From IMG/VR virus record IMGVR_UViG_3300029705_006930: a stretch of DNA of 64,000 nt. One strand, 5' to 3'. Below the pieces are notes generated by a model, which was not told where the DNA came from, searched no databases, and was given only the letters and a program-made list of their open reading frames with translations. The position numbers were made by a program, and so were the translations under genes. Source of the stretch: a virus. Its lineage: Duplodnaviria > Heunggongvirae > Uroviricota > Caudoviricetes. Below, piece after piece: positions 110 through 56,749 of the stretch. How positions within the stretch are numbered: the stretch's first letter is position 1; the number at the start of each line of letters is the position of its first letter.

Positions 110-1441
110 CTATATCTCATTTTCAATCTCCTCATCTTCATCGTTATATCGTATCGGACTACCTACGGGAAGCATCTCTAAAAATGCTGCTCCAGGCAAC
201 CAATATTTACTTCCATCATTTGTTCTTTTTGCAACTGAAAAATGTATGTGTGCTATGCGTCCTAAATAATCATCTCTGTGTTCCCAAAATTCTTTGCGTT
301 CTTCATCGCTATATCCAAGAGGCAGCACGACGTTGCTACCTTTATAATCAACTATAAAACTCTGCAGTATATCTTCATTTTCTTTTTTTGTGTAATCAAC
401 TATCATCAAATCTGCTTCATGCATTTGTCTTAGGTATAAGAAACTTTCACTGTTCTGTCGGTATTTATATAAGTCATAATCAAGATTAACTAAAATTCCT
501 GCGTATCCTTTTTCTTTGGCTACTCTGAATGCTTTTAAAATATTTCCTCTGTAACGTCCATTAAATAAAATCGGGGCAAGTTGTATATGTTCGGTAGGTG
601 TAAAATTCGTCTCTAAAAATGTTCGTCGGTCTTTATATATGTTTTTACATGTCTTACGGTTAAATTCTTTCAAAGATAATATGTCATAGATATAAAATAT
701 AATGTCACTTTTATCGCGCTCTGGCAGTCGGACTATCCATCGCTCTTTCATTCGGCGGTCATAAGGGGAGAGGTCTTTTGCATCCTCACCTTTATAAACA
801 AGTTCGCCATCAAATACCACTTCATCAAACGGCAAGTCATTAAATTCCTGCAAGAGTTCATCGAAGCCCTCAAGGACAATGCCGAAGCGTGTATACATTC
901 TTGCTTCGCCACATTCTTTGATAACAGCGCAGCGGGTGCCATTGTACCAACCGGAAACTGTGAACTGTCGCTGACGCACATAGTCTTCGTTACCATAGTA
1001 CAGCCCCGGCATCATCAATGGGATTTCATAAACAGTTCCCGCGCCATATACTGTATTGACCTGTTTGGCTGAAACATTTATTTCAAGGTCTCTCAGCACC
1101 GCATCAATCAAAAAGTCGTGGAGCTCAGCGGGGTAGAGGGTAAGAGAACCATGTATCTTTGCCACAGCTTTTTTATTACCCGCCCCCATATATGTCAGAT
1201 ATTCAAGCAGGTCATCACCTTCGCCTGTCACAAACGGCACAACGTCTTCGGCTGTAATTTCGGACGGCGCCCATTTATCAAAGATAAGGAAACGGCTTAA
1301 CCCAAGACGCGTTTTCCCAAACTGATACAATAAAAAGTCTGTCCACTTGGTATTTGTTGCATTACGGCGCAATATGCGTATTTTTTCATCATAAGATGTT
1401 GTGGCCGCCAACGCATCTGCAATTTGTTTAATTTCGTGTAT
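110..1441 (-). CDS. ATP-dependent DNA ligase-like protein with degenerate catalytic motifs (pseudo-ligase paralog of 55427-56749)
   Basis: Collinear with the ligase at 55427. VVFDGELV (motif III), IIFYIYDIL and the OB-domain end LGYSDEERKEFW are kept. Motif I reads SGWYNGTR (Lys to Trp), motif IV AGILVN (Glu to Ala) and motif V FLYLR. Start is set at ATA 1441, which lies 8 nt after GGGGG; the track's TTG at 1411 has no SD. Confidence 0.6.
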   Translation of the reverse strand: MHEIKQIADALAATTSYDEKIRILRRNATNTKWTDFLLYQFGKTRLGLSRFLIFDKWAPSEITAEDVVPFVTGEGDDLLEYLTYMGAGNKKAVAKIHGSLTLYPAELHDFLIDAVLRDLEINVSAKQVNTVYGAGTVYEIPLMMPGLYYGNEDYVRQRQFTVSGWYNGTRCAVIKECGEARMYTRFGIVLEGFDELLQEFNDLPFDEVVFDGELVYKGEDAKDLSPYDRRMKERWIVRLPERDKSDIIFYIYDILSLKEFNRKTCKNIYKDRRTFLETNFTPTEHIQLAPILFNGRYRGNILKAFRVAKEKGYAGILVNLDYDLYKYRQNSESFLYLRQMHEADLMIVDYTKKENEDILQSFIVDYKGSNVVLPLGYSDEERKEFWEHRDDYLGRIAHIHFSVAKRTNDGSKYWLPGAAFLEMLPVGSPIRYNDEDEEIENEI

Positions 1442-2620: not shown

Positions 2621-3442
2621 CTACCCATTTAATGCGCTGTCAATACTGTCCGCCATCGCATTAATTTCGCCCTGTGTTATTGTAAGGTATGTTTTTGTTA
2701 CGCGCTGGTCACTGTGCTTGTACTTTGCCTGCAAGATGTCCATAACACTGTCGTTGTTCATTGTTTTGCGCGCTGTGTATCCGTATGTTTTGCGCAGTGT
2801 ATGTGTTGCCACGTTCTGTGTGAGGCCCGCCGCCTTTGCACCTTTCTTTAAAATGTCCCACATTTGGTGCAGGCTCATTTGCCCGCCATTGTCACTTTTC
2901 TGGGACTTGATAAGGTAGTCGCTCATTGTATAGTTGCCGTTGAGATGTTCAATGTACATTTCAATGGCTTTTTTTGCGCCCGCTGTTATTTTGTTGCGAT
3001 TGTACTTGCCGGTCTTTTGTTCGTACACATCATAGTAATCTTTTACTGTACCATCCTCATTGAGAACGTCACTGATGCGCGCTCTGAGCAGGTCACTGCC
3101 TCTGTCCCCAATGGTGCAGCCAAACACTACCATCATATAATTGCGGTACTTGTGTCGGCCCCCATGTTCAAGGAAGTAGTTTGCGAGACGCTGAAATTCG
3201 TCCGCGCTGTAAAGAGGCTCTGCACTCTGTGCCTTTTTCACGCCATTGCTTTTGTAAGGCGACGCTGTTCTTGGTGCACGCTGTTTTGGCGCTGGCTTTG
3301 CTGCGGCCATTGCCTGAGCCACTGCATTTGCTATGATGCTCTGGAGCTCGTCCTGTGTCATTTGGAGCTTTGGTGCTGCCGCCTGTGCAGGAAAGTTGAT
3401 TGTATTATTCTGTACGTTTTGTTCTTTTGGCTGAGCGTTCAT
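2621..3442 (-). CDS. int: tyrosine recombinase / phage integrase (small, 273 aa)
   Basis: Catalytic-domain motifs are present: GDRGSDLLRARISDV (Arg), ATHTLRKTYGY (H-x-x-R) and HSDQRVTKTYL (His and the Tyr nucleophile). GGAGG SD. Confidence 0.8.
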   Translation of the reverse strand: MNAQPKEQNVQNNTINFPAQAAAPKLQMTQDELQSIIANAVAQAMAAAKPAPKQRAPRTASPYKSNGVKKAQSAEPLYSADEFQRLANYFLEHGGRHKYRNYMMVVFGCTIGDRGSDLLRARISDVLNEDGTVKDYYDVYEQKTGKYNRNKITAGAKKAIEMYIEHLNGNYTMSDYLIKSQKSDNGGQMSLHQMWDILKKGAKAAGLTQNVATHTLRKTYGYTARKTMNNDSVMDILQAKYKHSDQRVTKTYLTITQGEINAMADSIDSALNG

Positions 3443-3589
3443 AGGTGCCTCCTTGTTTGGATTTTTGTTTCCTCTTTTATTGTCTATATTATACCATGAG
3501 AGGGGCTCTTTGATAACGGGGTTTTTGAAAAAACCAAAGAACTTTTTTAAATTTTTTGTGGCGCTTTATATATGTTAATGTATATAAGG

Positions 3590-4200
3590 AAAGGTTGATG
3601 CGGTTGTTGCGGGGCAGTGTGATTTGGCGCAAAATTAGGCGATTTTTAGGGTGTTTGCAATTGTGTAAGGTCTGGTGTTGGAAATTTGGAAAGGTGTCTT
3701 AATGCCTGAATTTGAGGCTCTGGTGGGGTTATTCTATCACAGTGCTGACGCACTGTGGCGTCGCTGTGCTCCTTTATCTTATCAACGATGAAATGTTTGT
3801 TATTATGTTGCGCGAGAGAGGGTGTGGGGCGCGAAATTTGGGGGCCGGAGAGGTGGGAGGCGCGGTTTTGGGGCGAAATTGGGGCCCGGGTGGCCGGGGC
3901 TAAAATGGGCGTTTCCGGGGGTGTTTTGAGGGGTGTTTGGATAAGTTGCACAAAAATAGAAAAGCCACAGCCGGCTCTGTATGGGGCTAGCTGTGGTTCT
4001 TGTTGTTTATGGGCGTGATTTTGTTGTTTTTATAGTGTTTTGTGGCAAAAATGGTGAAAAAATGTGTAAAAAGGCGCGAAAATGCGTCAAAATGTGTGAT
4101 TTTTGATGATTTTTGGGTGGATTTGGTGTGGAATCAGGGCGAAATGGTGTGGAATGTTGTGTTTGGAGGGTGTTGTGGGGGTGAAAAGTGGACAAATATT
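3590..4200 (+). repeat. GT-rich, C-poor non-coding tract with at least 10 degenerate GAAAWTGKG repeats and clustered G4-5 runs
   Basis: Repeat examples: gcgaaatttggggg (3832), gcgaaattgggg (3873), taaaatgggcg (3901), aaaaatggtg (4047), aaaaatgtg (4058), gaaaatgcg (4078), caaaatgtgtg (4088), gcgaaatggtgtgg (4139). Seven G runs of 4 or more fall between 3824 and 3935. Composition is unlike the flanks. Confidence 0.6.
3964..4010 (+). terminator. putative intrinsic terminator inside the GT-rich tract
   Basis: CCACAGC (3965-71) pairs with GCTGTGG (3990-96), followed by ttcttgttgttt. Confidence 0.45.
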
Positions 4201-5284: not shown

Positions 5285-5399
5285 TGTTCAGGTTATCAAA
5301 AAACATATAAATTATGTACAATTGTTGTAAAATATGGATAAATAAACCATTTTAAACTTTTTGGTAATATTTTTGAGTTTTCATTCAATATATATGCGA

Positions 5400-5951
5400 C
5401 AGCTAATAGCGGTTAGCGGTTAGGGTGTTAAGCCTTGCCCGCTTGACCGCTTTTTGTCTGTCTGTTTTGCTATGCTTAATTTGTAAGTATAGGACAGGAC
5501 AACCTACCAAGTAGGGACAGCCCAAACGCACAATGTTAGCGTGTTTTGGTTGAAAAAATTTCGGTTTTTTCTTACCTATTGATTGTGTCCCTTTAAAAAA
5601 GGACAGCGGTTCACTCCGCAAGCAAGCCGTCGAGAGATAGTAGATGTTGACACCCTCTTATAAACTGCAAGTAAGGTAGTAAAACAAAAGCCGTAAACGG
5701 CTTGGCTCTTTAAGGTGCCGTTTAGCTAACGGATAAGCGGAAATTGTTCAAAAAAATAATTTTTGTTTGTGAGCGGTTCATTGTGAATATCCAAGGATGT
5801 ACACAACCAAAATGAATTGCCGTCATTACATCTTAGGATGTAAAGGTGGTTACGCAAACGAACAAAAACGAAATTTTCAACAAGAGTATGTGAGAATGTT
5901 TACGATATTTCCAAAGCCGACAGTGAAATGATATATCTGTCGGCTTTTCTT
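5400..5951 (+). ncRNA. candidate large structured non-coding RNA locus (about 0.55 kb)
   Basis: No SD-led ORF. Contains repeated words (AGCGGTT x4, GCGGTTCAYT x2, GGACAG x4) and several local hairpins, and ends at the terminator 5915-5951. Confidence 0.3.
5915..5951 (+). terminator. intrinsic terminator
   Basis: AGCCGACAG (5915-23) pairs with CTGTCGGCT (5937-45), followed by TTTTCTT. Confidence 0.7.
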
Positions 5952-12850: not shown

Positions 12851-13078
12851 ATGCTTAGAATTTATGTTGGTACAAACACAAACCGTACAGCTTACACACT
12901 TTCCCCAGAAACAACCCTCAGAGCAGCTTTTGAAACTGCAGGCGTGAACTATGAAATGGGTACCGCAACTCTTGATGGTTCCACACTTCAGCCGGGCGAC
13001 CTTGACAAGTCTTTTGCAGACTTCGGCATCACAGGTACAGCTTACCTCCTGAGCATTGTTAAAGCAAACAACGCTTAA
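12851..13078 (+). CDS. ubiquitin-like / ThiS-MoaD-like beta-grasp protein (75 aa), C-terminus KANNA
   Basis: Its size, alternating pattern and the LDGSTLQPGDLD...YLLSIVK segment resemble ThiS/MoaD. It sits in an operon with JAB and E1. There is no terminal GG. Confidence 0.5.
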   Translation: MLRIYVGTNTNRTAYTLSPETTLRAAFETAGVNYEMGTATLDGSTLQPGDLDKSFADFGITGTAYLLSIVKANNA

Positions 13079-13093
13079 TTGATTTTACCTATA

Positions 13094-13115
13094 GGGGCGG
13101 GAGCAATCCTGCCCC
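13094..13115 (+). other. stable 9-bp hairpin with GCAA tetraloop between the Ubl gene and the next gene
   Basis: GGGGCGGGA-gcaa-TCCTGCCCC. Confidence 0.7.
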
Positions 13116-13139
13116 AATCTTTAAAGAGAGGAGCTCAGT

Positions 13140-14540
13140 ATGGCACACACATTTAAAAAATGGATGATAAAAGCCATTCCATATGACAACTTGTTTGACA
13201 TATCGGTGGACTTTGAGAATCCATTCCCGACCGATAATCGTCGCGATGCTACACTCGCGGCTGCATTTCACTGTTTGATTAAAGACAGAATTCCAGAGGG
13301 GGTTAATCGCATTGTAGTGCGTGATATCCACTCATATGACTGCAACGTGAGAGACATTTTTGACTATTATGAGGTTGAAAATGGTTTCAAAAGTTGTATT
13401 TTTTACTACGCAGATTGGGACAATGTGAATCTGCAGAGCAAAATTACATTGCCAAATGAATGGGAAGCTCAGGAAATTGCAAGCAAATTTACTGGATGTT
13501 ATGTTACAAATCACGTATCAAAACAATTGATGGTTATCTTTATTCCGAGCAACTATAACCTTGAAACTTGGCATAGACTTGGTGCATTGTTACCAAAATA
13601 TCCAGTGCTCGAGGATATGTGGGCAGCAAAACCACTTACCGAAGATGAACTCAAGATGTTGAAATCACTGTCAACAGACGGTGTAGATTTTGACACATAT
13701 ATAAAAGCGTGGATTGCGACACTCGACCTGCGCACATCCGCAATCAAAAAAATGTTCAACAAATTCATTATTGATAACATCGAGGAACAGATACGCAATG
13801 CCGAAGATAGACGTAGAAGCCTTGAAAACAATATCACAGACTATGCTGCGAGACTGGCAAGGCTGTATAGCGACCTTGACGGTGTTATTGAAATGATAAA
13901 CCGTCTTATGATAGGTGATGACACTGTTGAAGAAAAAGAAAAGAGACTTATCGAATTCTTGTTAACAAACAAAAATGTTGAGCCAATCAGACGTCGCAAT
14001 GACCGCGTTGAATTCAATGTTCACGCAGCAATTGACTGTTGGGATAACGATATGTTCTCATCTTATATCAATAATCACAACAGTTTATTGTATCGCCATA
14101 CAAGCAGATATTCATATGACCAGTTGAAACGTTTTTATGAGCAGGCATTGTTTGCCGGTCGCTTTAAAATTCAGGGCATTGCTAAATTTGAAATTGCAGC
14201 AACAGGTAATGTGAGACCAATTTCAAAAAATGGGCATTGGCCATCAGCTGAAATCGAAAACTGTATTCCAAATACACATGTGGATAAATTCACTTGTATT
14301 GGTAATCACAGACGTATGCTGGATGATGCTGCAAAAATTCGTGACTATGAACAGGCAATTTTGATTGCTATTCAGATTACACAGTCAGTTAACTGGTCGG
14401 ATGGTGCAGTTATGAATCACTTTATTCCTGAAGTGTTGCACTGTGAACGTCCAATTCTTACAGACAGAACAGGCAATACATACACTGTTGCACAGGTAAT
14501 AAGCATACTTGATGCCGAAATAAAGGAGGTTGAAAAATAA
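13140..14540 (+). CDS. hypothetical 466-aa protein of the Ubl cassette (central coiled coil, function unknown)
   Basis: GAGAGGAG SD. Overlaps the JAB gene as ATAATG. Confidence 0.7.
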   Translation: MAHTFKKWMIKAIPYDNLFDISVDFENPFPTDNRRDATLAAAFHCLIKDRIPEGVNRIVVRDIHSYDCNVRDIFDYYEVENGFKSCIFYYADWDNVNLQSKITLPNEWEAQEIASKFTGCYVTNHVSKQLMVIFIPSNYNLETWHRLGALLPKYPVLEDMWAAKPLTEDELKMLKSLSTDGVDFDTYIKAWIATLDLRTSAIKKMFNKFIIDNIEEQIRNAEDRRRSLENNITDYAARLARLYSDLDGVIEMINRLMIGDDTVEEKEKRLIEFLLTNKNVEPIRRRNDRVEFNVHAAIDCWDNDMFSSYINNHNSLLYRHTSRYSYDQLKRFYEQALFAGRFKIQGIAKFEIAATGNVRPISKNGHWPSAEIENCIPNTHVDKFTCIGNHRRMLDDAAKIRDYEQAILIAIQITQSVNWSDGAVMNHFIPEVLHCERPILTDRTGNTYTVAQVISILDAEIKEVEK

Positions 14541-15475
14541 TGAAACCAATAAGATTGACCGATGATGTAAAAGCGGCTATTCTTGATAAATTTGCAAAAC
14601 AGCTGAGCACGGTTGTACGTGCTTCAACTATTACATTCACACATACGCCAACAGTGGTAAGCACACCGTTAGGCAAAGATGAAAAAGTGCTGATTACTTA
14701 TACAGCAGAAGCATTCCGCAAGCAGCAGATGCTTATTCAGAGTTTTGACAGTGAAGTGGCTTGGCACGGTGTTGTTGAACGTGAAGATGCAAAGCATTTT
14801 ATTATTACAGATATCGTAGTATATCCCCAGACTGTTACCGGCTCAACTGTTGAGATGGACGAAGACAAATATGCTCTTTGGACAATTCAGTTCGGTCGTG
14901 AACACGGCGAAGAAACATTCCAGAAACTGCGTATGCAGGGACATAGCCACGTGAATATGGAATGTTTTGCAAGTGGTACAGACTCTAAACACCAGGATGA
15001 CATCTTGGCAACAACTGACCCAAATGGGTTCTATATTTTCATTATTGCCAATAAAAAAGGCAAATTCTGGAGCACTATTTTCGACCTCGAAGCAAATGTT
15101 CAGTATGAAAATGCTGACATCGAAATCGAGTATGAGGAAGATGAGTACGATGAATTTGTAAGTGCAGCAGAAAGTGTGGTTGTAAAAAAGACTTATACAC
15201 CACCTTACAACTATGGCAATGGCTATCACAACAACGGAGCAGGGTATTCATACGGGGCAAGCGCTTATTCTCAGAAGCCACCTCAGACTCCGCCTATGCC
15301 AGTGCTTCCGACAAATACACAGCCAAAAACAAGCACAAACGAAACAAACACAAAGGCAAACACAAACACAAAAAAGGACGATAAATCCATTGAAGAAGAT
15401 ATCACCAATCTTATTCAGATGTCATTGAACGATATGGAATGGGATGAAGTTGGTGGATGGACAAGCAAAATGTAA
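14540..15475 (+). CDS. JAB/MPN+ (JAMM) metallopeptidase with Pro/Thr/Asn-rich C-terminal region
   Basis: DSEVAWHG (Glu) followed by HSHVNMECFASGTD, which fits H-x-H-x7-S-x2-D. Confidence 0.8.
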   Translation: MKPIRLTDDVKAAILDKFAKQLSTVVRASTITFTHTPTVVSTPLGKDEKVLITYTAEAFRKQQMLIQSFDSEVAWHGVVEREDAKHFIITDIVVYPQTVTGSTVEMDEDKYALWTIQFGREHGEETFQKLRMQGHSHVNMECFASGTDSKHQDDILATTDPNGFYIFIIANKKGKFWSTIFDLEANVQYENADIEIEYEEDEYDEFVSAAESVVVKKTYTPPYNYGNGYHNNGAGYSYGASAYSQKPPQTPPMPVLPTNTQPKTSTNETNTKANTNTKKDDKSIEEDITNLIQMSLNDMEWDEVGGWTSKM

Positions 15476-15484
15476 GGAGAAATT

Positions 15485-16174
15485 ATGGACTTAAGTAAAT
15501 CACTTGACTGGTTTAATCCAGACAGCGTTTCGGAACGCATACATATTATCGGATGCGGTAGTGTAGGTAGTACAGTTGTGGAACTGTTGGCAAGATTCGG
15601 TCTTACAAAGTTCACTCTGTATGATTTTGACCTTGTTGAACCTCACAATATCGCAAACCAGATGTTCAGAAAAACGGACATTGGTAAAACAAAAGTTGAA
15701 GCATTGCAGCAGATTGTATGTGAAATCAATCCAGAGGCGGGCAAAGATATTAAACTTGAACCAGAAGGTTGGCACGGACAGCAGTTGTCTGGCTATGTAG
15801 TTCTTGCTGTTGATAGCATTGAATTGCGTAAAAAGATTTGTGAAGGTTTGCAGATGAATATCTTTGTTAAAGCTGTGTTTGATTTCCGTACAAGTTTGCT
15901 CAACGCACAGCATTATGCAGCCAATTGGCAGGACAAAAAACATCGTGATGACCTCATTGCAACAATGCAGTTCACCGATGAAGAAGCTGCGGCTGAAAAC
16001 CCAGTATCAGCGTGTGGTGTAACACTTGGTGTCGCACCAACAGTAAGACTGATATGCACACTAGGCGTAAGCAATATGATGAACTTTTTCAGAGAAAAGA
16101 AATTGAAAAAAGTTGTATTGGCAGACGCATTTAATTTTGATGCTGACCCTATGGTATTACCTATGGGTCAATAA
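15485..16174 (+). CDS. ThiF/MoeB/E1-like adenylyltransferase
   Basis: IIGCGSVGSTVVELLARFGL...LYDFDLVEPHNIANQ is a Rossmann GxGxxG and adenylation motif. Confidence 0.8.
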   Translation: MDLSKSLDWFNPDSVSERIHIIGCGSVGSTVVELLARFGLTKFTLYDFDLVEPHNIANQMFRKTDIGKTKVEALQQIVCEINPEAGKDIKLEPEGWHGQQLSGYVVLAVDSIELRKKICEGLQMNIFVKAVFDFRTSLLNAQHYAANWQDKKHRDDLIATMQFTDEEAAAENPVSACGVTLGVAPTVRLICTLGVSNMMNFFREKKLKKVVLADAFNFDADPMVLPMGQ

Positions 16175-16216
16175 TACACAATAAGAGAAATGTTTATGGT
16201 GAATATTGCACATTGT

Positions 16217-16500
16217 ATGGCAAGCTTTTGCTGTTAGCAGAAGTAAAGAAATGGTAGAGAACATAGAGGCAGGCGCTTAAGGAGCACGCTGAGGTGATTC
16301 CTAAGTACTGCAGCTTCTTGCATCCGACGAGCTCTGAAAAGGTAGGTTTAACAGGAGGATTGGATTACTTACAAGTGAAATTAACCAGTTCAAACCGTAA
16401 AGCTCATCTGAAATTAACGATAAATCCCAGATTTGCATCTCTTTTATCCGGGAATGAAGGGCTTAAAACTATAGCTAGACCATAAACAAGATAGGGAGGA
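16217..16500 (+). ncRNA. structured non-coding leader upstream of the RT (module A)
   Basis: Hairpin at 16225-43, GAAATGGTAG at 16248, enclosing stem 16217-24/16317-23. No SD-led ORF. Confidence 0.5.
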
Positions 16501-16504
16501 CATT

Positions 16505-17860
16505 ATGGTTTATATCACATATCCAGCACCTAACAAATTTCATCAGATTACATTTGAAGAAATGATGTCGGGCAATGTTAATACAGATAAATTAAGAATT
16601 TTAGGCGGACATAATACGCTTACTTTGCATCTTAACGATGTACCTGCAAACTTAAAAGGTCAGACTTCTGTACGCAAAATGATTGCAGATTTGCAGTATT
16701 TTGTAGGTGTATATTATGACACACTGATGCCACAGATAAAAGAATTTGAGAAGCTTTCAGATGCTCAGCGTCGCAGCGTCAAACAGCGTGACAAGATTGA
16801 AAATTATTTTGAACAGATGGGCGCAACTGCAAATGATGAAGACTTGCAGAAAATCACTGAACAGGTAGATGCGCTGCAGTGTGAAGTTGCAGAACAGCAG
16901 TATAAATATGCTTACTATACATTCGATTTGCGCAAAAGTTCAGCGCCGGAACACATTCCATTGTGGCGACTGCCAAAAGAATACAGACGTACAATCAATG
17001 CTCCGAACATACATCTTAAAAATGCGCTATATGAACTTAAAGAACTGTTTGAAAATATGATGATACGTACATATCATACTGCATCATTTGCGTATGTTAA
17101 ACATCGTGGAACTTTGGATGCTGTAAAACGTCATCAGAGCTGGGAAAGCAAATGGTTTGCAAAGTTTGACTTTTCAGATTTCTTTGGTAGCACAACAATT
17201 GACTTTGTTATGCAACAGTTCTCTCAAATATATCCGTTTAATATGATTTGTGCATATAAAGATGGTAAAGAAGCTCTTTATAAAGCATTGCAGTTGTGTT
17301 TTTTGGACGGTGGACTTCCACAGGGCACACCTATTAGTCCTCTCATCACAAACATAATGATGATACCATTTGACCACGCAATGTCAAAAGCTCTTAAAGA
17401 ATTTAAATATCCAAACAAACACGGTAGTGAACGTTTTGTGTATACAAGATATGCTGATGACCTGCTTATCAGTTGCCGTGTGGATTTTAAAGTGGAAATT
17501 ATTCAGGCATTTATTCTGGAAACTTTAAAATCAATGAATGCGCCTTTTAGCCTTAACGTTAAGAAAACTCGTTACGGTTCTAGTGCAGGTAGCAACTGGA
17601 ATCTTGGGGTGATGCTTAACAAAGACAATAAAATTACAATCGGTGCAGAAAACAAGCGCAGACTTAAAGCTTCTTTGAATTCATTTATCCTTGATATGAA
17701 GAATGAAAAACCTTGGGATATTTCTATGGTGTATAGACTCAGAGGTCAGATTTCTTATTATCGTAATGTGGAAAGGGAAGCAACAAATAACATCATTGCA
17801 GCGATGAACACAAAATATGGTGTTGATGCAGAAGCAATGATGAAATCTATTATAAGTTAA
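16505..17860 (+). CDS. reverse transcriptase, retron/UG(DRT)/Abi-like, with about 190-aa N-terminal extension
   Basis: KFDFSDFF, LPQGTPISPLITN, YTRYADDLLIS, KKTRYG, LGVML and a thumb-like RLRGQISYYRNV occur in order. GGGAGGA SD. Confidence 0.85.
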   Translation: MVYITYPAPNKFHQITFEEMMSGNVNTDKLRILGGHNTLTLHLNDVPANLKGQTSVRKMIADLQYFVGVYYDTLMPQIKEFEKLSDAQRRSVKQRDKIENYFEQMGATANDEDLQKITEQVDALQCEVAEQQYKYAYYTFDLRKSSAPEHIPLWRLPKEYRRTINAPNIHLKNALYELKELFENMMIRTYHTASFAYVKHRGTLDAVKRHQSWESKWFAKFDFSDFFGSTTIDFVMQQFSQIYPFNMICAYKDGKEALYKALQLCFLDGGLPQGTPISPLITNIMMIPFDHAMSKALKEFKYPNKHGSERFVYTRYADDLLISCRVDFKVEIIQAFILETLKSMNAPFSLNVKKTRYGSSAGSNWNLGVMLNKDNKITIGAENKRRLKASLNSFILDMKNEKPWDISMVYRLRGQISYYRNVEREATNNIIAAMNTKYGVDAEAMMKSIIS

Positions 17861-17879
17861 TTTAATTTTTATATATTGA

Positions 17880-18790
17880 ATATCACAGTCATTGTGAAGT
17901 GTTGATGTTATCGGCACTAACGAAATGGTAAGAAAGTATGGCAGGAAGGCCCGCAGGTTCATGATGAAGACGCGTGCGAGCTTACAGCTCCAGCATAAAA
18001 ATTAGAAATGCTGGTACAATGAAAAGGAAGAAAATCATGAACGAAAGCCATACTTTCCAACATCCACAAAACCACGAATTTAAAACGCTTCATTACTCCG
18101 CGACCCTCCGCCAGGAGGGCCCGGGCGCGGTAAAGCGTCAAATAAATAATTGAGAATATATAAAAAAACTTTATTGAATATCTTTAAATTTGTACATAAA
18201 TTTAAGAACTGTTGCTGTTAGCAGCAGTGTCAAACGAACAGGATAAATAAAGAAATACAAATTTCTTTATTTAAATAACTTCTTAGCGTCGTAAGGCGCG
18301 ATGCTCCGACATCGCTCATGACGACGCCAAAGTTATTGAGAATAAAGTTAAAAAAATAATAAGAAAAATAAACAGTGTATATTTGCATAGCAAAGCTATT
18401 GATGTAATCAGTAGTACAGAAATGGTAGGAAAGATTACACGGGACGGTGTCGCCGGTGAGGAGCCACCTCCTTTGCAAACCCCTGCAATATTTCTAAAAC
18501 CTAATTAAAACTATGTCCGAATGGTCAAACATAACAGGAGGACTGAGAAACATCACCTGAAGGATACCAACTGAACCCCCAGTTCAGATGACACGACAGC
18601 TGGAGAAATCTAGACCCATGGGATGGTGATTCAACATTAAATTACAATTCAGACTGTTTATTGCTTTATAGTTTTTGCCAAGCTACGAAAACTCCAAATA
18701 ATGAGTAGTGTGTGACATAAAAGCCAAGCCTCGTCAACTCCCTTTCGGGGCTTGGTAAAGACTATAAAACAAACAATTTAAGTAAAGGAG
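17880..18790 (+). ncRNA. about 0.9 kb structured non-coding region downstream of the RT (modules B, D, C plus long hairpins)
   Basis: Module hairpins at 17899-917, 18209-27 and 18396-414. Long hairpins at 18086-18138, 18245-72 and 18273-18335. No convincing ORF. Confidence 0.5.
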
Positions 18791-18797
18791 AATATAT

Positions 18798-19187
18798 ATG
18801 ACAAAAGCAGAAAAAGCAGCTGGCAGGCTGTTAAGAAGAATGAATAAAGAATACTTGGGTGAGGTAGAAGCATTGATAAAAATGTGTCGACAGCCTAAAG
18901 TTGACCTTTCTGAAATCAGTATTCAGTCCTACAAAGTAACAGTTTTGGCAGAGCTCAAAGACGAATTTTTTGCAATCAAAATGACAGAAGATGAAATGGA
19001 GTATATTTATGACCTCTATGCTTGTCTTGATGCTCCTTTGAATTATTTGTGGGAATGTTGGCGTGATGATGAAGGCTATAACATTTCTGACTCCATTGGT
19101 GATTTAGTTTCTGATATTATAAGCCAGGATATCGAATGTATTTCAGAAGATAACTTAATCGAGGTGAATATGGATGAGACTGAATGA
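18798..19187 (+). CDS. hypothetical protein
   Basis: AAAGGAG SD. Confidence 0.65.
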   Translation: MTKAEKAAGRLLRRMNKEYLGEVEALIKMCRQPKVDLSEISIQSYKVTVLAELKDEFFAIKMTEDEMEYIYDLYACLDAPLNYLWECWRDDEGYNISDSIGDLVSDIISQDIECISEDNLIEVNMDETE

Positions 19188-55426: not shown

Positions 55427-56749
55427 ATGAGACAAATATTAAATATGAGAGAAACATTAACGCGAGTAAGTTTTTTATTTAAGACTATTGCGAGTACACC
55501 AAGGACAACTGAAAAGAAACGATTGTTGCGTTATATCAACAGCTCAGAACCAGAGAATGTATGTGAAATGTTTCTGTATACTTTACGATTTTTATTGGAT
55601 AACAATGTAACAACAGGTATCGATAAAAAGAAACTCAAAGCTCAAATTAATATGCCTGATATTAATTTTCCAATGAAATGGTCACATATGTTGGAATATA
55701 TCAAAGAAAACAATACAGGAAGGCATGAAGATATTCGCAGAGCACAGCTCTTTATCGAAGATAATCCCGAGAATGCGGAATTTATTGCTGATATTATAAC
55801 AAAATCATATAGGTTAGGACTGACAGCCAAAACAGTAAATGAAGTTTATGAAGATTTTATTCCTGTTTGGTCAGTACAGCAGGCATATCCTTTGGAAAAA
55901 TATCCGCTTAAGGACGGAGAATGGTTTTCTTTATCACAAAAGCTTAATGGGTTCCATGCCTCATATTACAAGGGTAAATTAATAAGCCGACAAGGAAAAG
56001 AAATCAAAGGTTGTAAGCACGTTATTAACGCAATAAACAACTTTAAACTTCAAGATTTCTTTATTGATGGCGAGCTTATCCGGCGTAATGATATTGAACC
56101 TCATCTCTCAGACGAAGAAAATTTTCGACAGACTGTTTCAATTGCGAATTCTGATTCTGACGACAAAACAGACCTGTGTTTTATTTATTATGATATCATT
56201 CCAGCTGATGATTTTGACAAAGGCAAATGTGAAATAACATATCGCCAACGTCTTAATGACATGCATAAATTAAACAGTATAATTCTGCAGACTCCATTTT
56301 ATAAAACGTTTCATATGGTGAAATGGTTTTATCACGGCAATGACCAAAAGAAAATTCAGTTTTGGCTTGATTATGCAAATGAAAATGATATGGAGGGTCT
56401 TATGTTAAATAAGGATACTGTATATCAATGCAAACGTAATTCAGGCATTTTAAAGGTAAAAAGTTGGAAACATTGTGACCTTAGAGTAACGGGCGTTGAA
56501 GAAGGCGATGGCAAATACAAAGGAACCCTTGGAAAACTGATTGTGGACTATAAAGGAAATACTTTGGGATTAAGTGGAATGAGCGATGAGGAACGTTATA
56601 TATTTTGGAATAATCCACAGGACATAGTTGGGAAGATTGTGCTCGTTAAATATAAACAGGAAACAAAAGACAAAACAGGTAAACGTAGTTTGCAGTTCGC
56701 AACCTACCAAGGTGTTAGAACTGATAAAGATGAAGTCAGCTACAATTAA
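55427..56749 (+). CDS. ATP-dependent DNA ligase
   Basis: Motif I SQKLNGFH, motif III FIDGELI, motif IV EGLMLNK, motif V ILKVK, plus an OB domain. Confidence 0.8.
   Translation: MRQILNMRETLTRVSFLFKTIASTPRTTEKKRLLRYINSSEPENVCEMFLYTLRFLLDNNVTTGIDKKKLKAQINMPDINFPMKWSHMLEYIKENNTGRHEDIRRAQLFIEDNPENAEFIADIITKSYRLGLTAKTVNEVYEDFIPVWSVQQAYPLEKYPLKDGEWFSLSQKLNGFHASYYKGKLISRQGKEIKGCKHVINAINNFKLQDFFIDGELIRRNDIEPHLSDEENFRQTVSIANSDSDDKTDLCFIYYDIIPADDFDKGKCEITYRQRLNDMHKLNSIILQTPFYKTFHMVKWFYHGNDQKKIQFWLDYANENDMEGLMLNKDTVYQCKRNSGILKVKSWKHCDLRVTGVEEGDGKYKGTLGKLIVDYKGNTLGLSGMSDEERYIFWNNPQDIVGKIVLVKYKQETKDKTGKRSLQFATYQGVRTDKDEVSYN

Follow-up and report, generated by a model that had tools for sequence, protein, structure and literature searches.

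A retron-type reverse transcriptase in a gut phage and four flanking RNA units of predicted msr–msd-like architecture

Retrons are known as bacterial anti-phage systems built from one reverse transcriptase (RT), one noncoding RNA (ncRNA) and a toxic effector. Type I-A and type II-A retrons (Ec78/Eco7, Ec83, St85/Sen2 and Ec86/Eco1) are the systems that come nearest, by hidden Markov model (HMM), sequence and predicted structure, to an RT encoded in IMG/VR virus record IMGVR_UViG_3300029705_006930, a 64-kb stretch of phage DNA called the window here. Like these retrons, the phage locus has ncRNA bounded by complementary a1 and a2 segments, G marking the 3′ end of a1, places one such unit immediately upstream of the RT gene, and follows RT-proximal conserved stem–loops with a variable template region. 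Unlike them, it has four units of ~300 nt per RT, three of which are downstream (in relatives, one can be 3 kb away), an RT with a ~130-aa N-terminal extension and AVKRH/NLG motifs, and no PADLOC retron effector in the gene cassette that precedes it, and it lies in a phage early operon rather than a bacterial defence island. We put at roughly 70% the probability that the phage carries a retron variant whose single retron-type RT works with four cognate msr–msd-like ncRNA units, a reading that rests on sequence comparison and structural models.

Stand-alone (msr-msd)-RT cassettes in retron RT clades 2 and 11 likewise comprise a retron-type RT and an ncRNA with no recognised effector, and are described as single (msr-msd)-RT cassettes, unlike the four-unit phage array (Mestre et al. 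2020, PMC7736814). Engineered multitrons resemble the array in combining several complete msr–msd units, each with its own priming site and template, with one RT (Gonzalez-Delgado et al. 2023, PMC10370050). Multitrons are synthetic and Eco1-based, with identical msr copies and designed donors, whereas the phage array is natural, its units have diverged and their templates are unmatched in the 64-kb window. A literature survey of incomplete coverage, which leaves novelty unproven, returned no natural multi-ncRNA retron, no phage retron array and no module joining an RT to ubiquitin-like (Ubl) proteins.

The RT, of 451 aa, is encoded on the plus strand (16505–17860). Direct reading of its translation gives the four palm motifs that an earlier note on this DNA had listed, FDFSDFF, QGTPISPL, YADD (the catalytic motif) and LGVML, and the protein matches Pfam RVT_1 (3.7e-18). 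Classification with profile HMMs, which the same note had proposed, leads to retron RT models in both PADLOC, where RT_II-A is the best match (2.1e-41) ahead of RT_I-A (2.3e-33) and other retron RTs, and NCBIfam, where retron_St85_RT scores best (1e-46, 159.5 bits). A sequence search of the PDB with the RT gave retron RTs as the top nine of 16 matches (seven so named), Ec83, Ec78 and Ec86 among them, and these matches cover residues ~133–441. The AlphaFold (AF2) model, built on 45 homologues, has a predicted local distance difference test (pLDDT) score of 89.5, and in a Foldseek search of the PDB its top ten hits are all retron RTs, with target-normalised template modelling (TM) scores of 0.72–0.82 for seven single-domain retron RTs and 0.35–0.38 for 580-residue Eco2 fusion chains. 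Group II RTs, those of the defence-associated reverse transcriptase (DRT) systems DRT2 and DRT9, and RTs of diversity-generating retroelements (DGRs) rank below, with DRT2 and DRT9 at position 23 or lower and DGR at position 29. While the locus layout had earlier been judged not to match retrons, the best profile, sequence and structure matches of the RT are thus all retron RTs.

The predicted fold runs from an N-terminal extension (beta strands, then long helices) through fingers and palm to a thumb-like region. The extension, previously put at ~190 aa, measures about 125–135 aa relative to retron RTs; neither the PADLOC nor the PDB sequence matches extend into residues ~1–135, which have no counterpart in retron structures. 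Retron RTs are defined by NAXXH in region X, between RT2 and RT3, and by VTG in region Y, a triplet in RT7; conservation is highest at H and G (Mestre et al. 2020, PMC7736814). When HMMER aligns the RT to Ec83, NAKIH pairs with AVKRH, keeping H while N and A are lost, and VTG pairs with NLG, keeping G while V and T are lost. H210 (region X) and G368 (region Y) are invariant in the RT family, H210 across 45 members. Because H and G are kept but the full motifs are absent, we call the protein a divergent retron-type RT, placed by profile, sequence and predicted-structure match rather than by phylogeny, and assign it to no established retron type.

Relatives of the locus comprise 61 IMG/VR contigs and one GenBank gut phage record (RT ~40% identical). 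At E ≤ 1e-10 the RT clade numbers 4,494 homologues. Among closer metagenomic relatives, RT identity is 57% for locus L063, 48% for L066, 50% for L068, 46% for L071 and 44% for L072, and further relatives include two contigs of metagenome-assembled genomes binned as Lachnospiraceae and Oscillospiraceae.

Around the RT gene lie four same-strand copies of an 8-bp hairpin, exactly where the earlier note had placed them; a repeat finder independently recovers all four, starting at 16222, 17896, 18206 and 18393. Each of these conserved hairpins, called P2 here, sits inside a 183–301-nt unit with the anatomy of a retron msr–msd. From 5′ to 3′, a unit consists of a1, an invariant G, a variable hairpin P1, the hairpin P2, a 3′ segment that varies and has G as its last base, and a2. 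All units are on the RT strand, with A upstream of the RT gene and B, D and C downstream.

Unit A (298 nt, 16191–16488) is bounded by a perfect 10-bp a1/a2 helix anchored on G, formed by a1 at 16191–16200 (TGTTTATGGT) and a2 at 16479–16488 (ACCATAAACA), the latter preceded by G. The candidate branching G at 16201 is followed by P1 (16206–16223), P2 (16225–16243), the motif GAAATGGTA (16248–16256) and then a variable template-like segment. The a2 segment ends 16 nt upstream of the RT start codon, the classical retron position, and orthologues of unit A in L063, L066, L068 and L002 retain a1/a2 pairing through compensatory changes.

Downstream of the RT gene, unit B (301 nt, 17866–18166) has a perfect 12-bp a1/a2 helix and a covariance-model E-value of 1.6e-9. 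It is composed of a1 (17866–17877), G 17878, P1 (17883–17897), P2 (17899–17917), GAAATGGTA (17922–17930), a GC-rich msd-like hairpin at ~18085–18138, and a2 (18155–18166). Unit D (183 nt, 18167–18349) abuts it, with a perfect 9-bp helix between a1 (18167–18175) and a2 (18341–18349), G 18176, P1 (18183–18206) and P2 (18209–18227). This unit lacks the GAAATGGTA motif and carries two strong hairpins (18244–18273 and 18274–18337); it folds with z = −6.29, and GAATATC follows its a1/a2 repeat as in unit B. Short motif-less units of this type hold the same array position in L063 and L066. Unit C (296 nt, 18367–18662) again has a perfect 10-bp a1/a2 helix, with a1 at 18367–18376 (AATAAACAGT), G 18377, P1 (18382–18394), P2 (18396–18414), GAAATGGTA (18419–18427) and a2 (18653–18662). 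The long hairpins noted before near 18086–138, 18245–72 and 18273–335 fold as described, and the 937-nt flank downstream of the RT is strongly structured overall (z = −6.35).

The a1 segment of all four window units is followed by G(A/T)ATAT, and G stands immediately before every a2. P2 is located 19–33 nt 3′ of the candidate branching G, and the reverse complement of a1 follows 165–278 nt further on. Between the G and P2 are 4 unpaired bases and then P1, which ends one base short of P2. The unconstrained minimum-free-energy fold of each unit alone recovers a1/a2, P1 and P2 in four of four cases. When the boundary signature was defined as a perfect repeat of at least 9 bp with G after the 5′ arm, G before the 3′ arm and 140–360 nt between, it occurred four times in the 1.27 kb flanking the RT and nine other times in ~128 kb (both strands of the window).

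Two elements of the earlier description are not supported. Stems GCAAG/CTTGC and GCAAAG/CTTTGC, thought to enclose hairpins A and C, are present as sequence but compete with P1, which is found in all 14 units of the comparative set described below with unrelated sequences; the enclosure recurs as a 5-mer in 4/14 units and as a 6-mer in 2/14, and it was rejected in favour of the local P1 hairpin. The supposed duplicate of the RT leader is merely a 10-mer and a 7-mer at equal spacing, with ~62% identity by base count, and goes unreported by the repeat finder; a better repeat, which that program does report, pairs 18532–45 with an internal motif at 16349–62, TAACAGGAGGA(T/C)TG.

The flanks read as RT-associated structured ncRNAs rather than decayed coding sequence, as had been proposed: every reading frame of every unit holds at least two stops, and no small open reading frames (ORFs) are conserved. 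The accompanying claim that the flanks hold no ORF led by a Shine–Dalgarno sequence stands in general, with one exception, a 38-codon ORF (MNESHTFQ...) at 18037–18153 inside unit B with AAAGGAAG upstream. It has no counterpart in the orthologous units of L063, L066 and L071 and is therefore probably not a gene.

In the window copies of P2, both strands of the stem vary at positions 1, 3 and 7, and all four copies have U-G at position 4, in agreement with the earlier reading. Over 14 units, the four of the window and ten in three related loci, P2 is 99.1% paired and five of its eight pairs are changed on both sides. None of 500 shuffles reaches the observed percentage paired, number of both-side pairs, number of both-side cells or covariation score, 2/500 reach the observed number of further pair types, and slid controls collapse. 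A covariance model of the hairpin and its 3′ flank, built from these 14 copies in four genomes, finds in the 64-kb window the four copies only (E 4e-11 to 3e-8; next E 0.66), and the modules recur with covariation beside homologous RTs, an outcome that the earlier note had proposed to look for. Position 4 is U-G in 12/14 units. On direct reading it is C-A in unit A of L068 (4701–4719) and in all four L031 copies (3557, 5055, 5372 and 6342), and Watson–Crick only once (U-A). This would suggest that wobble geometry at this position is selected, hinting at a recognition feature.

The motif that starts 4 nt after P2 is less uniform. Of the sequence reported for hairpins A, B and C, GAAATGGTA is common to all three, and the (G/A)GA ending fails in A, where the motif reads GAAATGGTAGAG and GAAATGGTA continues as GAG. 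Literal GAAATGGTA is absent from all 62 first relatives, which carry the genome-specific variants GCAATGGTA, CTTGAGC, GAATTTGT, CCATTTG and TTCGATAAA. Over the 16 nt after P2, identity is 0.72 within a genome and 0.55 between genomes (motif-less D units left out; small sample), and this somewhat greater within-genome likeness fits co-evolution with one RT.

The boundaries of the units are conserved in geometry, with their sequences changing. G follows a1 and precedes a2 in 14/14 units from four genomes, and G directly after a1 is found also in units of L071, L072, L031 and the relatives designated group 1. Cognate a1/a2 helices average 10.1 bp, versus 4.1 bp for 182 non-cognate combinations, and the few long non-cognate matches checked were orthologous units, such as window C with L068 C. 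The a1/a2 sequences differ among genomes yet remain complementary: unit C changes from AATAAACAGT/ACTGTTTATT in the window to AATAAATAGT/ACTATTTATT in L063, and unit A from GTTTATGGT/ACCATAAAC in the window to GTTTGTGTT/AACACAAAC in group 1. The a1 of further unit C orthologues reads AATAAAACAGT in L066, TATAAACAGT in L068 and AAAATAAAACAG in group 1, where the unit lies ~3 kb downstream of the RT. There are four units in L063, L066, L071 and L031, three in L072 and group 1, and two in L068; L063 and L066 have their four in the same order as the window, and in group 1 one unit precedes the RT, another follows it closely and the third lies ~3 kb downstream. Between clades the number ranges from 1 to 4, with possibly one in the clade of L034. 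The template part of orthologous units is poorly conserved (49–53% mean column identity) and aligns too poorly for a consensus msd structure to be derived.

Under the retron reading, the a1/a2 duplex would join the two ends of each unit, so that the invariant G adjoining the 3′ end of a1 faces the G that stands before a2. The RT would recognise the conserved 5′ part, that is, the 4 nt, P1, the 8-bp P2 with its U-G or C-A wobble and GUU-type loop, and the GAAATGGUA-type motif. Priming would be from the 2′-OH of the invariant G, with the cDNA beginning at the base before a2 and running into the variable segment, and the outcome would be up to four different branched RNA–DNA products resembling multicopy single-stranded DNA (msDNA). 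Engineering work supports the feasibility of several units per RT: a single retron RT can use whole msr–msd ncRNAs arrayed on the same transcript (PMC10370050). A scan for sigma-70 promoters and intrinsic terminators showed no enrichment and leaves separate transcription units unsupported, so the units are probably parts of a long early transcript, with all four probably co-transcribed with the RT. The locus would work like a retron, but because the units do not form a single contiguous ncRNA and no known effector is present, it is not filed under an existing retron type.

Several observations weigh against this reading. The retron_St85_RT score lies below the NCBIfam family cut-off of 235, and the region X and Y motifs depart from NAXXH and VTG. 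The one long msd hairpin that retrons typically have is missing from units A and C, whose variable parts do not fold better than shuffled sequence, and an Rfam scan of the locus at E ≤ 5 gave no match. The ~300-nt units look longer than classical retron ncRNAs. Among the four proteins of the upstream cassette, the PADLOC retron effector models find no match, hence no recognised retron effector. Two of 80 related phages retrieved through a cassette gene lack the RT, which implies that it is dispensable or lost in some members, and adjacency of cassette and RT within one phage lineage could reflect shared descent, not function.

DRT2, DRT9 and DRT10 also depend on an adjacent structured ncRNA template, and the units could be RT-bound ncRNAs of a non-retron mechanism of that kind, with protein-primed, rolling-circle or repeat synthesis or a scaffold role, where a1/a2 merely closes the template and no 2′-5′ branch is made. 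Stem-closed templates are found in DRT2 as well, and the large extra N-terminal domain and divergent region X/Y motifs of the RT, together with long units and no classical msd hairpin in A and C, would suit such a mechanism. We nevertheless consider it unlikely. These DRTs belong to a different RT clade, and the DRT2 and DRT9 structures fall well down the Foldseek ranking, the top ten of which is filled by retron RTs. The Drt2 profile matches the RT with 47.3 bits against a cut-off of 390, and over residues 269–356 only, and Drt3a with 26 bits against 200; such weak and partial matches, and the stops in every unit frame, do not favour the comparison with DRT or UG systems that the earlier note drew. 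The phage units have no stop-free repeat template, and the stops exclude a neo-like open repeat. They do have the invariant retron-type G at the a1 boundary in 14/14 units, a specific retron signature.

It is improbable that the repeats are cis-acting RNA of the early operon (processing sites, attenuators or stability elements) or duplication leftovers with no role as RT substrate. The units do occupy untranslated stretches of a long same-strand operon, next to an element at 18663–18790 that resembles an alternative-pairing switch, their number is variable, and the RT is lost in two phages. The hairpin model, however, matches only beside the RT within the window, and the architecture travels with RT homologues down to ~40% identity, including the group 1 unit 3 kb away. 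The within-genome likeness of the post-P2 sequence, from its small sample, fits co-evolution with the RT instead, and it is not obvious what the a1|G ... G|a2 geometry would do in an attenuator.

The units might also be DNA-level elements, such as miniature transposons with terminal inverted repeats, recombination sites or replication-origin repeats, given that 9–14-bp inverted repeats bound each of them and unit number varies among genomes. This we regard as very improbable: the inverted repeats differ between units of one genome, unlike the copies of one transposon family; the units are on one strand only, their G is strand-specific and their covariation is of the RNA type, U-G and C-A wobbles being conserved; and no copies lie elsewhere in the 64 kb. 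A DGR or the remnant of a group II intron is the least probable of the explanations. Gut phages very commonly carry RTs, which are mostly put down to DGRs (PMC8241571), and the RT described here has a weak group II profile match. That match (TIGR04416), however, reaches 72.7 bits where the cut-off is 300, Rfam shows no intron RNA even at E ≤ 5, 16100–18900 contains no template/variable repeat pair or long repeat, and the DGR RT structure ranks as low as given above.

The content of the units was considered in the same light. Their template-like parts have no significant similarity elsewhere in the 64-kb window. The lack of window matches, the stops, the lack of a conserved ORF and the poor template conservation argue against a recombination donor, a DGR and a DRT2-like coding repeat; accordingly, a recombination-donor or DGR-like role within the 64 kb was rejected on the unmatched units, and a neo-like or DRT2-like coding repeat on the stops in every frame and the absence of conserved small ORFs.

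Immediately 5′ of unit A lies a plus-strand cassette of four genes (12851–16174). The first encodes a 75-aa Ubl-like protein (12851–13078) of a conserved family with a (D/N)NA C terminus, NNA in the window. It is followed by a 466-aa protein (13140–14540) with a conserved PNPH....C.G motif, which has no match in Pfam, PHROG, PADLOC, NCBIfam or the PDB, and whose single-sequence AF2 model is unusable (pLDDT 37.7). The third gene, for a JAB/JAMM-like protein of 311 aa (14540–15475), has an invariant E..HxH..S..D motif, and weak RPN11 and JAB matches are found in this protein and its orthologues. The last, a ThiF/E1-like protein of 229 aa (15485–16174), matches Pfam at 1.4e-20 and the PADLOC E1-E2 model at 3.2e-17.

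In gene order the cassette resembles Bil and type II modules of the cyclic oligonucleotide-based antiphage signalling system (CBASS), with a small Ubl-like protein, a large protein, a JAB-like protein and then E1/ThiF, and its E1 matches CBASS E1-E2 and 6A-MBL cap2 profiles. Unlike in Bil and CBASS type II, the cassette Ubl ends in (D/N)NA rather than Gly, the JAB matches are weak, and no E2 is recognised among the four proteins. All clades examined have the cassette ahead of the RT. When 80 IMG/VR loci were retrieved with ThiF alone, the RT was downstream in 78, and the 466-aa and JAB genes were also present in 76. The two loci lacking the RT (L115 and L126, ~5180 onward) keep the Ubl/466-aa/JAB/ThiF cassette and have small ORFs after ThiF. 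The near-obligate adjacency of Ubl, JAB and E1 genes to the RT may be functional or inherited synteny, and a functional link between cassette and RT may exist, as far as conserved adjacency indicates.

As a tentative extension, rather doubtful in our estimate, the Ubl-like, 466-aa, JAB, E1 and RT genes with 1–4 msr–msd units would form a conserved five-gene phage module of a new retron type, located in the core early region of a large gut Clostridia phage lineage, and a natural multitron whose distinct RT-DNAs act with, or are regulated by, Ubl conjugation. In such a module the RT-DNAs could be sensors or decoys in counter-defence or superinfection exclusion. More generally, our working guess from the context is a role in phage–host or phage–phage conflict, with RT-DNA as sensor, regulator or decoy; a canonical stand-alone bacterial defence is less likely.

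A widespread gut-phage group that conserves a retron-type RT in its early region, here with several diverged template RNAs and no known effector, would show that phages themselves use retron chemistry, and would provide a natural case of one RT serving multiple templates, so far an engineering trick only. The units offer compact natural scaffolds for multiplexed in-vivo production of single-stranded DNA, and the Ubl/JAB/E1 adjacency points to an undescribed, testable link between reverse transcription and ubiquitin-like conjugation. Among the many non-DGR RTs that gut viromes have yielded, some may, as the locus suggests, belong to the same kind.

The 64-kb window is phage DNA, as had been proposed, and encodes a tyrosine integrase, a serine recombinase, DnaB, DnaE and ligases, with its DnaE nearest to those of large Firmicutes siphophages. 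A relative sits within a 1.08-Mb contig, which suggests a prophage, and the phages that carry the RT module, in their early region, are temperate gut phages of Clostridia type. A blastn search of GenBank phages with the RT locus gave no match, nor did Rfam (gathering thresholds over the whole window; E ≤ 5 over 16100–18900), and tRNA/tmRNA (transfer-messenger RNA) scans found nothing.

Directly after the array, on the plus strand, the conserved structured RNA element (18663–18790) has a long-range stem of ~26 bp. RNAalifold on four orthologues gives 26 pairs, 10 of them with compensatory changes. Two direct copies of GCCAAGC...AACTCC (18677–95 and 18723–41) are each able to pair with one 3′ arm, and the element may be an alternative-pairing switch ahead of the ORF at 18798–19187.

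In the L034 clade of 60-kb phages, only 14 nt separate the ThiF stop codon from the start of the RT, and there is no upstream unit. Downstream of the RT are three tRNA genes (Gln, Leu and Leu/Met), and between these lies a 150-nt element bounded by a 13-bp inverted repeat (5098–5110/5235–5247), possibly a compact ncRNA unit (L034 5021–5408, L055 4928–5320). A 27-nt tandem repeat array with at least nine register-shifted matches is located ~1.2 kb downstream of the RT (L034 6132–6499; also in L040 and L057). In L031, two of the four units (3528–3600 and 5343–5415) share 73 nt of 5′ sequence without a single difference, pointing to recent duplication or gene conversion between units. Elsewhere in the window, the tyrosine integrase gene is on the minus strand (2624–3442), the large serine recombinase gene extends from 62420 to the window end, and two separate ATP-dependent DNA ligase-like genes are found at 113–1411 (minus strand) and 55427–56749 (plus strand).

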